Positions 1 to 5,372 of a stretch of DNA of 5,372 bases are shown piece after piece. Positions within the stretch are counted from its first letter, which is position 1. Every line of letters starts with the position of its first letter. Under the pieces are notes generated by a model. The model was not told the DNA's origin, searched no databases, and worked only from the letters and a program-made list of their open reading frames with translations. The stretch lies in the IMG/VR virus record IMGVR_UViG_2778261418_000009, positions 1-5,372 of that record; one strand, 5' to 3'. The translations under genes and the position numbers were made by a program. Source of the stretch: a virus. Lineage: Duplodnaviria; Heunggongvirae; Uroviricota; Caudoviricetes.

Positions 1-268
1 CATTGGCAAAGGCTGCACGCAACCCGGCCTTAATTTCCTCTACCTCATCAGCACCTGGCGATGAATCTGACAGTGCGCGATGGAATGCGTAAGCCATGTC
101 GTCGTTGATTTCTACAGGCACACTATCAGCCTTGCGGCGCTCCTGTAGCTCGCGCAGAGCCGCTACAACATAATGGCTATTGTGCTGGTCAGCCCACAGA
201 ATGAGCCGAATCAACGTTGCATTTGAAACGTATTCGTCTGTTAGTTTGCTATTGGTAAAAGTCGTCAT
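1..268 (-). CDS. Hypothetical phage protein, 5' portion only (start at 268, continues past the left edge)
   Basis: ATG at 266..268 (- strand) overlaps the HNH stop as ATGA. Upstream SD-like GAAGGGG. Frame stays open to position 1 (about 89 codons, MTTFTNSKLTDEYVSNATLIRLILWADQHNSHYVVAALRELQERRKA...). No motif recognised. Not in the ORF track because no stop lies inside the window. Confidence 0.45.
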   Translation of the reverse strand, partial: MTTFTNSKLTDEYVSNATLIRLILWADQHNSHYVVAALRELQERRKADSVPVEINDDMAYAFHRALSDSSPGADEVEEIKAGLRAAFAN

Positions 269-630
269 GCCGTAGCCCCTTCTTGATATTTTTCAAACCA
301 GAACACAACCGGGTCAGATTTCATTTCAACCAACCCCATACGAACCAGCGCTTTGCCTTTCCCGGACGCAAGGAATTCACGACGACCATCACTGATAATT
401 CGCCGATAATCTTCCAGGCTACTGCAATGCTTATGCAGATTGCATGGGTGGCATGCCGGAACCATGTTGGATATATCGTCACGTTCCTGGTGAAGCATAT
501 TTCCATCAAAACGAATGACCGGTTTTACATGGTCTGCATGCCACTTTTCGCCAAGTTCGCAGCCGCAATAAGCGCAGCGACCACCAAACTTCATGCGCAG
601 TTCTGCACGTTGTTTTTTCGTCAGTGCCAT
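265..630 (-). CDS. HNH endonuclease (121 aa)
   Basis: Within track ORF 265..720, but the start is placed at the internal ATG 628..630 because it is preceded by SD AAGGAAGG at about 5 nt spacing and sits 1 nt after the upstream gene's stop. Translation contains a classical HNH metal-finger layout: CAYCG ... HADHVKP ... N ... ACHPCNLHK. Confidence 0.8.
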   Translation of the reverse strand: MALTKKQRAELRMKFGGRCAYCGCELGEKWHADHVKPVIRFDGNMLHQERDDISNMVPACHPCNLHKHCSSLEDYRRIISDGRREFLASGKGKALVRMGLVEMKSDPVVFWFEKYQEGATA

Positions 631-631
631 A

Positions 632-850
632 TCAGCCTTCCTTATATGGATTAATTTTATTGTGTAGTGCGTTGAACGACGCCCATACCACGTCGTTATA
701 CAATTCAATAACTGGCTCAATTATTTTCCCGATTGCCCAGATAAAAATTAGCGGGGATATCGGTATCATCAACACGATAAACAGAATGAGAAACATGATT
801 TCTATTGTTCTGCTTCTTCGCGGGTATTCTTTTCTGAATAATGTAGGCAC
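632..850 (-). CDS. Small membrane protein (72 aa, one predicted transmembrane helix)
   Basis: Track ORF 632..850. GTG start preceded by SD AAAGGAGAG. Basic N-terminus (RKEYPRRSR) followed by a hydrophobic stretch IMFLILFIVLMIPISPLIFIWAIG. Stop TGA at 632..634 lies 1 nt before the HNH ATG. Confidence 0.45.
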   Translation of the reverse strand: MPTLFRKEYPRRSRTIEIMFLILFIVLMIPISPLIFIWAIGKIIEPVIELYNDVVWASFNALHNKINPYKEG

Positions 851-851
851 A

Positions 852-1040
852 TCACTCTCCTTTAGTGCGCAAGTGGCTTTTCCAGCGGTTTTGCGCCGCG
901 CTGGGCTTTTTGCAACAGCTGTGACCCATCACCCCGCAACACCCCGTCAACCTCACTCGTCTGTTACTAATCCTCAACCATCGCCAGACCCCAACACCGT
1001 TTCTGCGAGCTAACAGAATCTTTGCTTTACGGTTTTTCAT
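852..1040 (-). CDS. Small highly basic Cys-rich protein (62 aa)
   Basis: Track ORF 852..1040. ATG at 1038..1040 preceded by SD AGGAGAG. By my count 17 Lys/Arg and 1 acidic residue. Motif CC-x6-CC (GCCGVMGHSCCKK). Its stop is embedded in the RBS of the next gene. Comparable in size and charge to small nin-region proteins of lambdoid phages (analogy only). Confidence 0.4.
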   Translation of the reverse strand: MKNRKAKILLARRNGVGVWRWLRISNRRVRLTGCCGVMGHSCCKKPSAAQNRWKSHLRTKGE

Positions 1041-1207
1041 CGTTTTGCTCTCCTGCGTTTCTTTGCTGCACGTCGCGCCGCTGCAATACCGGTATGGCGC
1101 TTTGGTGCCGGGATAATATTGTCAGCCATCATGACATGTGGAATAACTGTTAATGACGACGCCCCAAACCGCACCAGATACGGCAATAAACAATTTTCCA
1201 TCCGCAT
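1037..1207 (-). CDS. Small protein with a poly-basic C-terminal tail (56 aa); below the track length cutoff
   Basis: Hand translation of the - strand: ATG at 1205..1207 preceded by GAGGTGA; product MRMENCLLPYLVRFGASSLTVIPHVMMADNIIPAPKRHTGIAAARRAAKKRRRAKR; stop TGA at 1037..1039 overlaps the ATG of the 62-aa gene (ATGA). Could still be spurious. Confidence 0.3.
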   Translation of the reverse strand: MRMENCLLPYLVRFGASSLTVIPHVMMADNIIPAPKRHTGIAAARRAAKKRRRAKR

Positions 1208-1283
1208 TTCTCACCTCAATTGATCTGAATATCAGTAATTGTTTGTTGCAACCATTCTTTAGTTAGTTCTGCCATTTTTATTA

Positions 1284-1335
1284 CCGCCCTTTCGGGCGGC
1301 CTCCGGATGATTTGAGGGTGCAGGAATCCCTCCGG
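1284..1335 (-). other. Structured intergenic element: GC hairpin with a GAAA tetraloop on the transcribed (-) strand, plus a second weaker hairpin
   Basis: 1284..1299 is ccgccc-tttc-gggcgg on +, which is CCGCCC-GAAA-GGGCGG on the - strand (6-bp GC stem, GNRA-type loop). 1314..1332 is gaggg-N9-ccctc. ctccgg occurs twice (1301..1306, 1330..1335). No U-tract follows on either strand. Lies in the roughly 200-bp gap between two - strand gene blocks. Confidence 0.3.
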
Positions 1336-1404
1336 TTAAGGATTTAATAAAAACCACTTCTGATTTAAATTTTCAGTGTTTTGTTGCCAGGTGATTTATC
1401 GCCT

Positions 1405-1716
1405 TTACGCTTCAGCCTTATTTCGCAACCAGACACAAACCGGGCCATCTTCGGTGTCATGTATTGAACCAATAAACCATCCATCGCCCTCTGGTCGTTC
1501 CGGTTTCCAGGAGGCAATATCGGGACCATCTGCGTCCAGATTAAAATCATCTTCATCCATAGTTCTGATGGTCCACTGAAGATTATTTTCCTCCATCCAT
1601 GCGTTAAACTCTTCCGTTGAAATATGTTCTCTACCATCACAGAATTTTTCATATTCAGGATGCGTCCAGCAGCCATATTCATCACGTACTACTGGTATTT
1701 CTTTAATTTCATTCAT
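1405..1716 (-). CDS. Strongly acidic, Trp-rich small protein (103 aa), function unknown
   Basis: Track ORF 1405..1716. ATG preceded by GGGAG and overlapping the upstream gene's end by 8 nt. By my count 26 Asp/Glu against 9 Lys/Arg, and 6 Trp. The overlapping alternative-frame ORF 1365..1685 lacks these signals. Confidence 0.6.
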   Translation of the reverse strand: MNEIKEIPVVRDEYGCWTHPEYEKFCDGREHISTEEFNAWMEENNLQWTIRTMDEDDFNLDADGPDIASWKPERPEGDGWFIGSIHDTEDGPVCVWLRNKAEA

Positions 1717-1963
1717 TTCTATTCTCCCACGTTTTCAGACTTTCACCACAGAACGGACAAAATGAAACCCGCACTGGTGATTTAGAAAATTCACCGGAAC
1801 GCAACATCACCAAATCAGGGCCGCGAGTTAAACTCTCATTCCAGATTTTGTATATCAGCAGACCTTTTCGCGTCGTGTATTCAGCATCATGCTCAAGGGC
1901 TTTTGCCAGTGCCGCACATGGTTCTATCTGATTGCCATTAACCTGGCATTTTGATTCACTCAC
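1709..1963 (-). CDS. Small protein with four Cys (84 aa), possible zinc-ribbon; function unknown
   Basis: Track ORF 1709..1963. GTG start preceded by GGAGGAGG and overlapping the upstream stop (GTGA). Cys at positions 6, 16, 69 and 72 (C-x9-C ... CPFC). Confidence 0.5.
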   Translation of the reverse strand: MSESKCQVNGNQIEPCAALAKALEHDAEYTTRKGLLIYKIWNESLTRGPDLVMLRSGEFSKSPVRVSFCPFCGESLKTWENRNE

Positions 1964-2382
1964 CGCACCTCCTCCTCAAAATTCCCCTGATAAAACGCCA
2001 GTACGTGCTGCATAGCTTCACTCTTCCGGCACTCGCGACAGATTATGTTTAGGCGCCTGTCGTAGCGGCGTATTTCGCCGTCTGGTAACGACCAGATAAG
2101 GTCCGGATCAACTACTGCAGGTTTCTTCACCTTTGTCCTTGAGAGTTTTTTGCGGGCATTTTGCCAGTCCTTACGAGCCTGTTCAGACGGGAATAACCCG
2201 TAACCAGAGTTGTATACATCGCCACTGGCAACCAGCTCTCTGGCAAGAACGCTCATCAGATATCTTGTCGCACCTGTCTTGGCTTCCAGTTGCCGTAACG
2301 TCTCGCGCCCACTCTGGCGTACGAATTCAACAACCTGCCCTTTAATTTTTTCCCGCTCTTCTTGTGTAAAAACTTTTGCCAC
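1960..2382 (-). CDS. Hypothetical early-region protein (140 aa) with a possible HTH-like N-terminal segment
   Basis: Track ORF 1960..2382. GTG start at 2380..2382 preceded by GGAGGA. Segment ETLRQLEAKTGATRYLMSVLARELV looks helix-turn-helix-like by eye (inference only). CxxC (CRECR) near the C-terminus. Sits directly downstream of the initiator gene. Confidence 0.55.
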   Translation of the reverse strand: MAKVFTQEEREKIKGQVVEFVRQSGRETLRQLEAKTGATRYLMSVLARELVASGDVYNSGYGLFPSEQARKDWQNARKKLSRTKVKKPAVVDPDLIWSLPDGEIRRYDRRLNIICRECRKSEAMQHVLAFYQGNFEEEVR

Positions 2383-2422
2383 AAGTCCTCCTGAAAATTA
2401 CCTCATGACCAGAAATCAACAC

Positions 2423-3493
2423 TTACCCCCTGAAGCCCGGTGGAATTTCGGTATCCGGTTCAGAAATATGATTCACACAACGCTGGTTGTTCGTGCCGCT
2501 TACCGGGAGCAACCAGGGGTTCTCAAAATTCCGGTCCGGTCCAAAAAACGTCGTCGCTCGCTGAACAAATTCCGTTCCCGTTTTCCCGGTAGCCGCCAGG
2601 TATCTTGCGTAACGCCTCACGCCATCCAGCATGGCCTCTGGTGGCACCCCCTCGCGTAATCTGGCCTTCCAGGCACTGAAAGCGGATTTCTTCGGATTTG
2701 CCCCGGCACGCAACGGGTACTCCCGCCAGACCTGTTCGAACACATCCGGATAATCCACTCGTCTCACAGGCTGCCCGGTGTTTTCCGGGACTACCCGATC
2801 GGCTTCCCGCTGAATGGAGGAATCGGCTTCAGGCTGCTGCAGTTGGTGTGATTGCTCCGGCCTTGCGGTCATCACCTGCTGCACAGCGCCCGAATCGGCT
2901 TTCAGCGCATACGCTGAATCGGCTTCCGGTGTCGTGCCTGCTGGCTGACCAGGATTGACGGTCTGAACATCCCCTGCCTGGTTCGTGGCGTTTTTTACGC
3001 CATGGACCATAGTGTTTTGATCTTCTTGATCTGTATCTTTATCTGTATCTTTATCTGTCGTGACTCGTCGTGACATGTGCGTGACATTTCGTGACGCGCC
3101 GTGACAATCTCCATTTTGTTCCCGCTTTCTTTCCCTCTCTCGCTGCGCCCTCTTGCGCTCTGCCGGAGATTTTGCGGTTTGCGAAATATTGCCGTTGTCC
3201 TCTTTCAGCACCTGGCGTTTTTCCCATCCAGTGATTAAATCACCATCAAGTACCCGCCCCTGCATCGTCTGCAAAATTGAATCAATTACCTCTTCTGTCA
3301 CGTCGAGCGCACTTGCCAAATCTTCTGTCGTGACATCAATGTGACCTCGCGTGACATTTCGTGACGCGCTCACCAATAGGTGGATATACACTGCCATCAC
3401 TGTTGCAATTGGCTGCCCTGACACCCTGGCAATTGTTCGCCACTTAGGGTCATTTGGCATGTCATGCCATAATCTGAGCCAGGCGTTAGCCAT
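2423..3493 (-). CDS. Phage replication initiation protein (O-like; replisome-organizer-type N-terminus, conserved phage C-terminal domain), carrying internal iteron arrays
   Basis: Track ORF 2423..3499. Start preferred at ATG 3491..3493 (MANAWLRLWHDMPNDPKW...), preceded by AGAGGTGA; a GTG two codons upstream is the alternative. The N-terminal W-x-R-L-x3-M-x-N-D-P-K-W pattern resembles phage replisome-organizer N-domains (from memory, not searched). Charged low-complexity linker (ERKRAQRERERKREQ, TDKDTDKDTD). Direct repeats typical of an ori lie inside the gene. Confidence 0.7.
   Translation of the reverse strand: MANAWLRLWHDMPNDPKWRTIARVSGQPIATVMAVYIHLLVSASRNVTRGHIDVTTEDLASALDVTEEVIDSILQTMQGRVLDGDLITGWEKRQVLKEDNGNISQTAKSPAERKRAQRERERKREQNGDCHGASRNVTHMSRRVTTDKDTDKDTDQEDQNTMVHGVKNATNQAGDVQTVNPGQPAGTTPEADSAYALKADSGAVQQVMTARPEQSHQLQQPEADSSIQREADRVVPENTGQPVRRVDYPDVFEQVWREYPLRAGANPKKSAFSAWKARLREGVPPEAMLDGVRRYARYLAATGKTGTEFVQRATTFFGPDRNFENPWLLPVSGTNNQRCVNHISEPDTEIPPGFRG
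3029..3058. repeat. Five tandem copies of a 6-bp unit ATCTKT (A/T-rich), adjacent to iteron array 1
   Basis: atctgt atcttt atctgt atcttt atctgt read directly from the sequence. Encodes TDKDTDKDTD on the - strand. Two GATC sites lie just upstream (3019..3022, 3028..3031). Confidence 0.8.
3059..3105. repeat. Iteron-like array 1: five direct CGTGAC repeats at 10-11 bp phasing (candidate origin of replication)
   Basis: CGTGAC at 3059, 3069, 3080, 3090 and 3100 (start positions), read directly. One-helical-turn phasing inside the initiator gene matches the lambda arrangement of ori within O (established knowledge for lambda; inference here). Confidence 0.6.
3329..3365. repeat. Iteron-like array 2: four (C/T)GTGAC repeats at 10-11 bp phasing, including a 21-bp exact copy of part of array 1
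   Basis: Repeats start at 3329, 3340, 3350 and 3360. gcgtgacatttcgtgacgcgc is identical at 3079..3099 and 3349..3369. An inverted copy GTCACG lies at 3297..3302. Confidence 0.55.
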
Positions 3494-3564
3494 ACTCACC
3501 TCTTTTGATACCGAATCTTTTTACTCACAAATTGCCGGAAGTGATCTGGTATGAATATCGCGAG

Positions 3565-3990
3565 TCAATGCACAGCCACAATATTTCCTGCAGGGCCACC
3601 ACGATTCATCTGGTTGAAACCAGCGATCGCCACTGCGACAAAATCATCAGCGTCTCTCACCAGTCGTTCCCGCGTCTCCACTAGTTCCCGAAAATAGGCT
3701 GAGCTATGGCTGCGCATTCGGGCCACCAGCAGAGGCGGCATTGCTTTTTCGATAGCTGGTAACAACGCCTGAATTTTTTTAACCGCATCAGGGGTGTCTT
3801 TCTCCACCCAGCGGAAAATTTTCTGAGTATTGCGAGCCAGGGCTTCCGGATGGCTGTCGTCATACAGTTCCGGGAACGTCATTCCCAGCTCGAAATACGC
3901 TTTGGTAATTTTCGCAGCCGGTACTTTTTCGCCGTCCGGATGCGCCCAGGCATTCATCGCCATGCGGATATGTTCATGCTTGATTTTCAT
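3565..3990 (-). CDS. ydaT: YdaT-like protein (functional analogue of CII in Rac/CP-933P-type prophages), 141 aa
   Basis: Within track ORF 3565..4062. Start placed at the internal ATG 3988..3990 (MKIKHEHIRMAMNAW...) because of the strong SD AAGGGGGG about 5 nt upstream. It overlaps the end of the cro-like gene by 17 nt. Assignment rests on position (directly after cro) and on my recollection of the YdaT N-terminus; not verified by search. Confidence 0.6.
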   Translation of the reverse strand: MKIKHEHIRMAMNAWAHPDGEKVPAAKITKAYFELGMTFPELYDDSHPEALARNTQKIFRWVEKDTPDAVKKIQALLPAIEKAMPPLLVARMRSHSSAYFRELVETRERLVRDADDFVAVAIAGFNQMNRGGPAGNIVAVH

Positions 3991-4216
3991 GAATCCCCCC
4001 TTGGTTAGAAGGCGGATTATGATCAGAACCGGGAATGACAACCGTCGGTATGTGTAACTCATATTTGAGCGCCCCGGCAGTGACTGCCTGAATTAGCAAC
4101 GCCCATTTCCACGGAACCTCTTCCCCCCACATGCTGACTGTGGTTTTTGACGTTCCTAGAGCTGCGGCTGTTTTAACAACTCCGCCAAAATAGCCTAATA
4201 CTTCTGATTTTTTCAT
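3974..4216 (-). CDS. cro: Cro/YdaS-like HTH transcriptional regulator (80 aa)
   Basis: Within track ORF 3974..4264. Start placed at ATG 4214..4216 (MKKSEVLGYFGGVVKTAAALGTSKTTVSMWG...) with SD GGAG at about 7 nt; an ATG four codons upstream (4226..4228) has no SD. HTH signature GGVVKTAAALGTSKTTVSMW. Divergent from the cI-like gene across the operator region. Confidence 0.7.
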   Translation of the reverse strand: MKKSEVLGYFGGVVKTAAALGTSKTTVSMWGEEVPWKWALLIQAVTAGALKYELHIPTVVIPGSDHNPPSNQGGIHENQA

Positions 4217-4307
4217 GAGTCGCTCCATAAAACTGAACGCCAAAAGTTTAATAATCAAAACCAAAGAAAGTCAAGAAACAAAACCATCTGTGTTTTAAAA
4301 TCAAAAC
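4217..4307. promoter_or_regulatory. Divergent immunity control region (PR-like and PRM-like promoters with operator half-sites)
   Basis: A/T-rich 91-bp spacer between the divergent cro and cI starts. Repeated GTTTT/AAAAC half-sites form imperfect 16-18 bp palindromes (for example tGTTTTaaaatcAAAACa at 4291..4308 and GTTTaataatcAAAAC at 4246..4261), and aatcaaaac occurs twice (4253..4261, 4299..4307). - strand -35 TTGACT (complement of 4269..4274) with a weak -10 near 4248..4253. + strand -10 TAAAAT at 4295..4300, only 7 nt before the cI ATG, with no SD, which suggests a leaderless cI mRNA as in lambda PRM. Confidence 0.5.
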
Positions 4308-4946
4308 ATGAGCAAGCAAACAATATCTGAACGCATAACCCAACGTATGCATGCGCTAAACCTGAAAGGCAAAGACCTTGTCAATGCCACTGGCGCATCA
4401 AAAGGCTCCGTAAGTCAATGGATGAACGGTGGAGGAGCGCCGTCCTCGCGTTACATAAGTTCACTGGCAAAAATATTGAAAGTAAACGAAAATTGGCTTC
4501 TTAATGGAGGAGAGTTAAATACAGGTGATTCGCTTGATCTATCTTTACCGCCGATAAAAACGGTTCCGCTACTATCACTTCAGCAGGCAGCAAGCTGGAG
4601 TGATTATATGAAAAATTCCTCAATAACCTCTTGTGTGCAGCTTGTCGGAGAAATCCCGGCCAATACCTTTGCAGTTGTTCTAGAGAGTGACAGTATGTCA
4701 ACATCTGGTGGGGGAGTTTCCATCCCAAATGGTTCAACAGTTTTTGTTGATCCCGATCGAACCGTACAACCAGGAAATATTGTCCTTGCCTTACCCAAAG
4801 GGACCACAACACCTGTCATTCGTAAACTGGAGATAGAAGGGCCGGATATTCTTTTAGTCCCCACGAATCCTCGCTACCCTTCAATTATGCTGGATGATCT
4901 ATCTTGCATATTGGGCGTATGCTTTAAAATTCAACAAGATATTTAA
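4308..4946 (+). CDS. cI: cI-like prophage repressor (N-terminal HTH_XRE, C-terminal S24 LexA-type peptidase), 212 aa
   Basis: Track ORF 4308..4946. HTH segment LKGKDLVNATGASKGSVSQWMNG. C-terminal domain has the Ser nucleophile context ESDSMS and the downstream Lys in VIRKLEIEG, as in LexA and lambda cI. No SD before the ATG. Confidence 0.88.
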   Translation: MSKQTISERITQRMHALNLKGKDLVNATGASKGSVSQWMNGGGAPSSRYISSLAKILKVNENWLLNGGELNTGDSLDLSLPPIKTVPLLSLQQAASWSDYMKNSSITSCVQLVGEIPANTFAVVLESDSMSTSGGGVSIPNGSTVFVDPDRTVQPGNIVLALPKGTTTPVIRKLEIEGPDILLVPTNPRYPSIMLDDLSCILGVCFKIQQDI

Positions 4947-4974
4947 CCGACCTCATCTATTTGATTAACTGTAT

Positions 4975-4991
4975 GCCATCGTGGTGATGGC
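4975..4991 (+). other. Perfect 6-bp-arm palindrome gccatc-gtggt-gatggc downstream of cI (possible weak terminator or protein-binding site)
   Basis: Read directly; lies 29 nt after the cI stop. No clear U-tract follows, so intrinsic-terminator function is uncertain. Confidence 0.25.
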
Positions 4992-5030
4992 TTAACAGCT
5001 GCCTGCTTAAAATGTTTTGATAAAAAAACA

Positions 5031-5059
5031 TTGACCTGAAAAGTTCATTTTTCTAAACT
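5031..5059 (+). promoter_or_regulatory. Candidate sigma70 promoter for the gene downstream of cI
   Basis: TTGACC (5031..5036), 17-nt spacer, TAAACT (5054..5059); an A/T-rich UP-like tract aaaatgttttgataaaaaaaca lies immediately upstream. Confidence 0.4.
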
Positions 5060-5238
5060 TCATTCATTCCCTCTCCCCACCCCACAGAATGCAGGGCAAT
5101 ACTTCGAGTTACCAGGCAGTGGTCAGGGGTTAAGTAGCCAGCCCGAGGCGTAAGAACATGACGGCAGGGTTCAACTTTAATAACTATGCAGCAGGTTTTT
5201 GTTCCGCTACCCCGGCGTTAAGGGGAAATGAGGTCAGC

Positions 5239-5372
5239 ATGGATACTATCGATCTTGACAACAGCGAATCTCTGGTATGTGGCGTGTTCCCCAACCAGGA
5301 CGGTACGTTCACCGCGATGACGTATACCAAAAGCAAAACGTTTAAAACCGAAAATGGTGCCCGTCGCTGGCT
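5239..5372 (+). CDS. Unrecognised protein in the rex/sieB-equivalent slot, N-terminal part only (runs off the right edge)
   Basis: ATG 5239 preceded by GAGGT at about 5 nt. Frame open to the window end (MDTIDLDNSESLVCGVFPNQDGTFTAMTYTKSKTFKTENGARRW...). An in-frame ATG at 5158 with a weaker SD (GAGG, about 9 nt) is an alternative start. Not in the ORF track because no stop lies inside the window. Confidence 0.5.
   Translation, partial: MDTIDLDNSESLVCGVFPNQDGTFTAMTYTKSKTFKTENGARRW

Follow-up and report, generated by a model that had tools for sequence, protein, structure and literature searches.

Two phased iteron arrays inside the initiator gene of a lambdoid Escherichia coli prophage as its probable replication origin

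The viral sequence IMGVR_UViG_2778261418_000009 (positions 1 to 5,372; this whole 5,372-nt stretch is hereafter called the window) corresponds to the early part of an Escherichia coli prophage of lambdoid type, and encodes on its minus strand a replication initiator whose gene contains two arrays of short, direct, helically phased repeats (iterons), the second of which adjoins an A/T-rich tract. We propose that the arrays and the tract very probably form the origin, or the initiator-binding core, of the prophage replicon. An initial annotation of the window had regarded part of this DNA as the prophage ori, bound by the protein that the same DNA encodes, and the following observations argue for this view. 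First, the gene product belongs to phrog_3729, a family of replication initiation proteins. Second, the repeats bear the marks of selection acting on DNA. Third, the same layout recurs in most of the homologous loci. Fourth, the arrays are lost where the N-terminal domain of the initiator has been exchanged. Fifth, the complete genome of the related phage Tritos has no other cluster of the repeated hexamer. Sixth, the elements follow each other in a lambda-like order.

Two iteron arrays within the initiator gene

The open reading frame (ORF) of the initiator matches phrog_3729 ('replication initiation protein') over its full length (E 9.8e-257). A further match, to phrog_1701 ('DnaD-like helicase loader'), covers the C-terminal two thirds, and the RefSeq name of the protein is 'phage replisome organizer'. 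The gene occurs in seven E. coli phages (Tritos, Evi, vB_Eco...; 98-98.6% identity), where it is labelled 'DNA replication protein O', 'replisome organiser' or 'primosomal protein I'. It most likely spans 2423-3493, because the phrog_3729 alignment begins at residue 3 and a good ribosome-binding site, AAGAGGTGAGT, precedes the ATG at 3493.

Five CGTGAC direct repeats start at 3059, 3069, 3080, 3090 and 3100 (spacing 10/11/10/10 bp), just as initially annotated, and together with the neighbouring ATCTKT units and GATC sites they all fall within the minus-strand ORF 2423-3499. The gene being on the minus strand, the unit reads (T)GTCACG in gene orientation, and the order is iterons first, then the A-rich tract. 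The array is also detected by Tandem Repeats Finder, with a period of 10 (3057-3106). CGTGAC is found 10 times on the two strands of the window versus 1.82 ± 1.46 expected, a count reached by 0/200 dinucleotide shuffles. This array (array 2) encodes linker residues CHGASRNVTHMSRRVT, its units falling in codon phases 1, 2, 0, 2 and 0. Across 3081-3108 of the plus strand, its iterons make up a sigma-70-like match (GTGACA-16 nt-GACAAT, 9/12) antisense to the initiator, which is probably not meaningful because such matches occur at chance frequency (1 found, 0.6 expected).

Another array had been overlooked. Array 1, which lies about 260 bp upstream of array 2 and about 130 nt from the start of the gene, comprises four direct units (GTGAC starts on the plus strand at 3330, 3341, 3351 and 3361, spacing 11/10/10); it encodes residues SRNVTRGHIDVT, which belong to the loop joining helices 1 and 2 in the predicted winged-helix domain, and no A/T tract adjoins it. 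An inverted copy of the hexamer, equally overlooked, sits 27 bp downstream of array 1. The module that had been placed at 3018-3105 is retained as regards its array and its A/T tract, but it is larger than first drawn, as it has a second array and a palindrome (see below), and conservation does not extend to the GATC pair. Both arrays share an exact 20-nt direct repeat, GCGTGACATTTCGTGACGCG (3079-3098 and 3349-3368), each copy of which encodes ASRNVT; recombination between the copies would cause an in-frame deletion covering most of that domain of winged-helix type.

Over 26 loci, the units are spaced by 10 bp 107 times and by 11 bp 31 times; when they are anchored on GTCAC, the following base is G in 89% of them, and at each spacer position no base exceeds 56%. 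In the complete genome of phage Tritos (46,360 bp), the only GTCACG clusters are the two in the initiator gene, the other 16 copies being isolated and the total being 25 versus 22.6 expected by chance, so that an iteron-type origin is not visible elsewhere in that genome.

The repeats appear to be maintained for their DNA sequence. First, the nine GTCAC units cover all three codon phases and yield differing peptides. Second, GTCACG occurs 8 times in the gene versus 0.87 ± 0.87 times in 10,000 synonymous versions with codons drawn from the window's own codon usage (maximum 5; 0/10,000 reach 8), and versus 1.55 times (maximum 6) when the gene's own synonymous codons are permuted. Third, in 24 species-level GTCACG-type homologues, third-codon conservation at conserved residues with at least four synonymous codons is 0.89 within array 1 versus 0.49 over the remainder of the domain (Mann-Whitney p = 5e-4); codons in the spacers of array 1 (R49, V52) vary as freely as the background, and the GTG codon of V65, which holds the inverted copy, is kept in 21/21 sequences having Val there (100%). 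Fourth, among 80 near-identical E. coli alleles (L007-L086), which are informative on allele variation only, 75 have five iterons and the others have lost one through a point change or another substitution, most substitutions falling in the spacers. Together, these patterns indicate that the repeats are selected as DNA and not through the protein sequence.

One might still see in the repeats a by-product of a low-complexity linker or of replication slippage, devoid of any function as DNA, given that array 2 and the A/T tract encode a charged and probably disordered linker (AlphaFold pLDDT < 50 for residues 96-105), that the copy number of a 12-mer in the tract varies among alleles as slippage predicts, and that the peptide ASRNVT appears twice. 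We find this scarcely credible: the hexamer lies in three codon phases with different peptides and far exceeds its expectation (8 vs 0.87), synonymous sites are frozen only at iteron positions, the hexamer and its phasing are retained among E. coli, Aeromonas and Pseudomonas phages whose linker peptides differ, and the number of iterons is stable among alleles while that of the 12-mers varies.

A recurring layout that travels with the N-terminal domain

A scan of one genome per species yielded 60 homologous loci in Gamma-, Beta- and Alphaproteobacteria and in some other metagenome-assembled genomes; in IMG/VR, 540 stretches encode a relative of the N-terminal domain (N-domain), 80 of them among the matches listed. 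Under a strict rule for calling an array (at least three units, 9-11 bp apart, with the same NNACG), 51 of the 60 species-level loci have an array and 26 of the 60 have one in each zone, versus 0/1200 shuffled sequences and 0/53 downstream flanks. The comparison of iterons and phasing in relatives, which had been proposed with the initial annotation, thus revealed a recurring layout and a hexamer that tracks the N-domain. The homologues have 3-7 phased units at the gene offset of array 2, and likewise a counterpart of array 1 at the matching offset. Among phased hexamers, GTCACG prevails in the closest homologues (most with at least 60% N-domain identity, two with 51-58%); at lower identity its place is taken by GTAACG, CGAACG, GCAACG, GTGACG, GGAACG or ACTACG, and the form is always NNNACG.

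Aeromonas phage pAEv1818 and Pseudomonas phage Marin, both with about 70% N-domain identity, illustrate this conservation well. Each has two GTCACG arrays (4 + 3 and 4 + 4 units, respectively) whose offsets in the gene are unchanged; array 1 is followed by inverted copies and array 2 directly by a GATAAAGATA-type tract, all this with linker peptides and codon phases that differ from those of the E. coli gene. One or two inverted copies occur at the matching place in Aeromonas, Pseudomonas and Ralstonia phages. Distant relatives show the same layout with other words, namely CGAACG (an uncultured phage), GCAACG (Ralstonia phage Firinga, whose two arrays are 260 bp apart) and RTAACG. After array 2, nearly all homologues have a (C/A)NAGATAAAGATA, AGAGAAGAG or CAGATACAGATA tract, regardless of the iteron word; these tracts, which lie in differing reading frames, have 60-80% A+T and, counted along the coding strand, 60-90% purine. 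We make no claim on the residues that determine specificity, because the array 1 peptide trivially follows the iteron word and the other determinants are inseparable from phylogeny in these 60 N-domains.

The arrays can also be followed through exchanges of gene segments. Shigella phage 75/02 Stx and related Stx phages have only the C-terminal 160 codons in common with the window's gene (82% nucleotide identity); in the initiator of these phages the N-terminal half is unrelated, the linker contains QEQEQE and GTCACG arrays are lacking, and the similarity starts immediately past the A/T tract (..TMVHGVKNAT.. vs ..TLLVHGEKIAT..). Conversely, the N-domain and the arrays are joined to a DnaC-like loader in an Aeromonas phage, to a short protein followed by a primase/helicase in a Pseudomonas phage, and to a DnaB-like helicase in a Ralstonia phage. 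These junctions indicate that the arrays go with the N-domain, and not with the C-terminal domain or with the neighbouring genes.

They also bear on the idea that the arrays serve another protein, such as a host nucleoid protein, the YdaT/cII-like or DUF977 neighbour, or a recombination or packaging function. Short hexamers could indeed be read by many folds, but the arrays travel with the N-domain in E. coli, Aeromonas, Pseudomonas, Ralstonia and many other hosts with differing neighbours, the hexamer changes as the N-domain diverges, and the arrays vanish when only the N-domain is exchanged, all of which makes such a reader very improbable.

The module is common in E. coli, O157:H7 included, and its homologues lie in prophages of many Proteobacteria. 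The segment comprising the N-domain and the arrays (window 2960-3499) is present in 2210/5426 complete E. coli genomes (about 40%), with up to 4 copies per genome and 7 places on plasmids, and an 85%-identical variant is found in O157:H7 strain 86-24.

The A/T-rich tract and the adjoining hairpin

The tract that follows array 2 is a candidate DNA-unwinding element. The five tandem ATCTKT units annotated at 3029..3058 are indeed there, with starts at 3029, 3035, 3041, 3047 and 3053, and Tandem Repeats Finder reports a period-6/12 array at 3024-3058 (2.9 copies of the 12-mer TCTTTATCTGTA, 95% matches). The lowest GC content of the gene, 30%, is found at 3020-3059. On its coding strand the tract has 71% A+T and 73% purine, and no other 40-mer in the gene is less stable (nearest-neighbour dG -43.4 versus a gene mean of -57.3 ± 3.8 kcal/mol); in the whole window it is the third least stable. 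Among the otherwise near-identical E. coli alleles (L007-L086, window 3024-3058), the copy number of the GATAAAGATACA 12-mer ranges from about 1.5 to 5; as this count varies while that of the iterons holds at five in nearly all alleles, the unwinding tract seems to tolerate changes in length. As for the pair of GATC sites, both are present (3019 and 3028), but their inclusion in the module did not hold, since GATC is not enriched (13 in 5372 bp) and the pair is not conserved in relatives. A conserved Dam/SeqA control element was likewise rejected, the pair being missing in E. albertii and in some E. coli alleles.

Directly beyond the A/T tract, the initial annotation had overlooked a palindrome of 13 pairs with a 5-nt A/T loop. 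As single-stranded DNA, it folds with a dG of -10.9 (z -5.15) on the plus strand and of -8.7 (z -3.05) on the gene strand, and Shigella phage 75/02 Stx keeps it with a compensatory T:A to A:T change (GGCGT..ACGCC to GGCGA..TCGCC). Hairpins also stand at this position in other members of the family: five loci have a conserved 11-nt loop, TCACTACGTTC, on 6-8-bp stems differing in sequence, and seven loci have perfect 8-11-bp stems, all different, with a TRAC or TATC tetraloop. These hairpins are not due to chance, because the 370 nt searched should contain only about 0.006 perfect 8-bp stems with a 4-nt loop. That the stems differ yet stay complementary suggests a structured DNA or RNA element within the coding sequence, which could act through cruciform formation, as a signal on the unwound strand, or at the RNA level. 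By analogy, the palindrome may be the counterpart of the inverted repeat that flanks the lambda ori.

The hairpin invites the suggestion that the whole is an RNA-level element, that is, an antisense transcript, a terminator or a regulatory hairpin controlling the expression of the initiator, the palindrome being the terminator. It is true that the palindrome folds better on the plus (antisense) strand, where its two imperfect positions are G-T pairs, and that TAGTGTTTTG follows it. The T-run is nonetheless poor, no Rfam family was found in the window, there is no promoter-like site upstream on the plus strand, and a scan of 2400-3600 returned one promoter-like and one terminator-like site (the latter being the palindrome), both at chance frequency. 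Above all, an RNA element would leave unexplained the hexamers phased by 10-11 bp in two arrays and their co-variation with the N-domain, and we consider it highly improbable.

Table 1. Features of the window and hairpin positions in other loci of the family.
Feature	Coordinates	Strand	Remarks
Iteron array 1	3329-3365	-	four direct GTCAC(G/A), spacing 10/10/11 bp
Inverted iteron copy	3297-3302	+	GTCACG on the plus strand, CGTGAC in gene orientation
Iteron array 2 (array of the initial annotation)	3059-3105	-	five direct (T)GTCACG, spacing 10/11/10/10 bp
A/T-rich tract, candidate DNA-unwinding element	3015-3058	-	GATAAAGATACA x3, then GATCAAGAAGATC on the coding strand
Palindrome	2979-3009	.	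13-pair inverted repeat, 5-nt A/T loop, directly beyond the A/T tract
Replication initiator gene, likeliest extent	2423-3493 (ATG at 3493)	-	AAGAGGTGAGT ribosome-binding site ahead of the ATG
Initiator, 358-codon mechanical ORF	2423-3499 (GTG start 3499)	-	
N-terminal winged-helix domain, about residues 1-95	3209-3493	-	presumed iteron-binding domain (predicted)
cI-like LexA/S24 repressor	4308-4946	+	
P22_Cro-like	3974-4216	-	
YdaT/cII-like	3565-3990	-	
DUF977 / Ren-like	1960-2382	-	next gene downstream of the initiator
Hairpins of family loci	L104:1945-1975, L119:~1927-1957, L121, L129, L134, L137, L139; L005:1939-1961, L090, L101, L130, L135		

The initiator, a proposed mechanism and comparison with known origins

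For the N-terminus of the initiator a winged-helix domain is predicted; a charged linker connects it to a DnaD/DnaT-like domain at the C-terminus. A Pfam scan of the protein returned nothing above threshold. In particular, PF04492 (Phage_rep_O) is not matched, whereas lambda O itself matches it at 5.7e-36; comparison of the N-domain profile with lambda O (hhalign) gave a probability of 0.2%, and profile comparison with SPP1 G38P detected zero similarity. Two families were matched below threshold, namely PF09681 (Phage_rep_org_N; E 0.0081, 16.6 bits, cut-off 23.3), which spans positions 1-119/121 and matches 7/44 family members (best E 3.3e-4), and TIGR01714 (E 0.016, 15.4 bits, cut-off 49.8), with an end-to-end alignment. 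A remote kinship of the N-domain with the Phage_rep_org_N replisome organizers is plausible, not demonstrated.

The last 24 residues (..VNHISEPDTEIPPGFRG; window 2426-2497, minus strand), which contain SEPDTEIPPGFRG, match the C-terminus of E. coli DnaT (NCBIfam NF002770, E 0.0016), and in a search of the sequences of solved structures only these residues found a match, again to DnaT (PDB 6aep, 2ru8, 9zbt). DnaT is a restart protein leading to DnaB-DnaC loading (PMC13220808). From this match, and because no helicase or loader gene was found after the initiator in the window, we propose that the phage initiator may reach DnaB-DnaC by imitating the DnaT tail.

Two side observations concern the initiator protein. 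Between the domains, four copies of (G)AATCGGCTT(C) at 2798-2929 (starts 2798, 2822, 2894 and 2918; GAAGCCGATTC on the coding strand) encode PEADS-type peptide repeats, which belong to the C-terminal module because Shigella phage 75/02 Stx has similar ones. In addition, metagenome proteins of about 180-195 amino acids (P0042, P0060, P0061, P0073, P0097, P0098 and P0105) have the same N-terminal winged-helix domain, with an HNH endonuclease domain (PF01844/PF14279) in place of the usual C-terminal domain.

The gene follows cI, Cro and YdaT-cII-like genes (Table 1). Downstream of the replication genes, the content is of the nin-region type, with an HNH endonuclease (265-630, minus strand; phrog_2118, with a weak NinG-like match); two small conserved genes at 1405-1963 (phrog_1372 and phrog_4030, function not assigned) are also typical of nin regions.

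We propose the following mechanism. The N-terminal winged-helix domain would bind the asymmetric GTCACG as a monomer. Owing to the 10-11 bp repeat, five monomers would line up on one helix face of array 2, and the resulting oligomer would bend or wrap the DNA. The strain would be released in the adjoining 40-bp A/T-rich, strand-asymmetric tract, which would melt, and the C-terminal DnaD/DnaT-like domain would recruit the host DnaB-DnaC, possibly via the DnaT-like tail. Array 1, with its four sites and the inverted one, would offer a second platform to the same protein, for looping with array 2 or for tuning initiation or expression. Transcription from the early rightward promoter would pass through the origin, as in lambda.

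Several points weigh against this reading. First, the support for an origin is comparative only, and our literature search found no description of GTCACG/GTGAC iterons, of an origin of this initiator family or of any experiment on the family. Second, the winged-helix fold of the N-domain is a prediction, and generic winged-helix matches are no proof of iteron binding. Third, the A/T tract encodes a charged linker, TDKDTDKDTDQEDQ, and varies in length, so its composition could be partly driven by the protein or by slippage. Fourth, 9/60 homologues have no chain under the strict rule; two of them are truncated loci and the others possibly have degenerate arrays. Fifth, helicase recruitment is the weakest inference, because an adjacent loader gene was not found and DnaA boxes are not enriched (TTWTNCACA with at most one mismatch: 13 vs 11.9 expected, none beside the arrays). 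Sixth, for array 1 we can offer only a probable role, either cooperation with array 2 or regulation.

This last point bears on a view in which the arrays bind the initiator without being the origin. They would act in autoregulation, as a roadblock to transcription, or in the control of copy number through handcuffing or titration, and replication would start elsewhere in the prophage. Array 1 lies within the gene without an adjoining A/T tract and is conserved as strongly as array 2, both arrays stand in the path of the early transcript, the weak sigma-70-like match overlaps array 2 in antisense, and plasmid iterons outside the origin act in this manner. Throughout the family, however, array 2 is coupled to a hairpin and to the gene's least stable DNA, as in known origins, no further hexamer cluster was found in a complete related phage genome, and the promoter-like match is at chance level. 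We therefore judge this view improbable for the two arrays, although it may apply to array 1 alone.

Returning to the origin reading, a bolder form of it, which we hold only tentatively and consider rather doubtful, is that the origin is bipartite, the arrays being bridged by initiator oligomers over about 25 helical turns and the hairpin being needed for firing or control, with NNNACG as a specificity code. If so, the binding word would also dictate a surface loop of the protein that reads it, as array 1 lies in the DNA encoding the winged-helix domain, and the code would sort many prophage replicons into cross-reacting or incompatible groups.

More generally, a located origin is a cis element for the construction of minimal replicons and aids the interpretation of in-situ prophage amplification after induction; the iteron word alone could predict replication interference between co-resident prophages; and the module offers a case for the co-evolution of a binding site with the gene of its reader when both are the same DNA. 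That an origin lies within an initiator gene is a textbook principle. The assignment of an origin to this initiator family is new, no origin being annotated in the annotated relatives inspected, and so is the arrangement in two arrays whose NNNACG word changes with the N-domain.

Among known systems, the ori and crr of P4 and the arrays of low-affinity DnaA boxes in oriC also consist of short, co-oriented sites that recur about once per helical turn, and the P4 origin is split into two clusters of one short iteron, lying apart from each other. With both, we see a resemblance only: the P4 ori and crr are kilobases apart and outside the sequence encoding the DNA-binding domain, and the initiators are unrelated (the P4 alpha primase-helicase; DnaA, an AAA+ protein).

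Plasmid iteron origins (pPS10, F, R6K, RK2, P1) have 17-22-bp iterons at a spacing of about two turns, are intergenic and usually come with DnaA boxes, whereas we found hexamers at one-turn spacing within a coding sequence, with no enrichment of DnaA boxes. They have in common with the present system a winged-helix initiator domain (predicted here) and helically phased sites, which in plasmids are phased monomer-binding sites (PMC5043065). By analogy, the short, direct, one-per-turn sites would resemble the monomer iterons of plasmids more than the dimer sites of lambda.

A further comparison is with the replisome organizers of Gram-positive phages. In SPP1 (oriL/G38P), direct repeats in the initiator's own gene, adjoining an A/T-rich unwinding element, are the origin (PMC6316719), and TP901-1 ORF13 and Tuc2009 Rep2009 also have an origin of direct repeats and an A/T-rich unwinding element in their own gene (PMC8965321). 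The prophage gene likewise has its direct repeats beside an A/T-rich element, but it encodes a DnaT-like tail where G38P has a C-terminal Phg_2220_C domain.

In the lambda ori (NC_001416), four 18-bp iterons occupy nt 349-433 of O; after them come a tract rich in A and in purines, CACAAAAGACACTATTACAAAAGAAAAAAGAAAAGATTATT, and, further on, an inverted repeat. An initiator-induced opening of the A/T tract has been described for lambda O (PMC5043065). Similarly, in the prophage the candidate origin lies within the initiator gene at the boundary of the N-domain and the linker (array 2, A/T tract and palindrome at nt 389-435, 436-479 and 485-515 from the ATG, respectively), thus almost at the lambda position. 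The elements come in the same order, namely iterons, an A/T-rich tract of about 40 bp whose coding strand is rich in purines, and an inverted repeat, and the gene belongs to an early rightward operon, after cro and cII-type genes. There are clear differences as well. Lambda iterons are 18-19-bp inverted repeats bound by O dimers at a spacing of about 20-24 bp and form a single set of four, whereas those of the prophage are asymmetric 6-7-mers, direct, 10-11 bp apart and in two arrays separated by 260 bp; O is followed by a P-type loader gene, and the present initiator by a DUF977 / Ren-like gene. The initiator is not a homologue of O. As the hexamer is not the lambda iteron, the specificity should differ from that of lambda, as the initial annotation had anticipated. 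It has been established from lambdoid hybrids that the N-terminal half of lambda O and the ori form a cassette that can be exchanged as a unit. In the same way, the comparison with 75/02 Stx points to a specificity cassette, made of the N-terminal half and the putative origin, that is exchangeable against the C-terminal half. Together, these data extend the lambda paradigm and do not overturn it.

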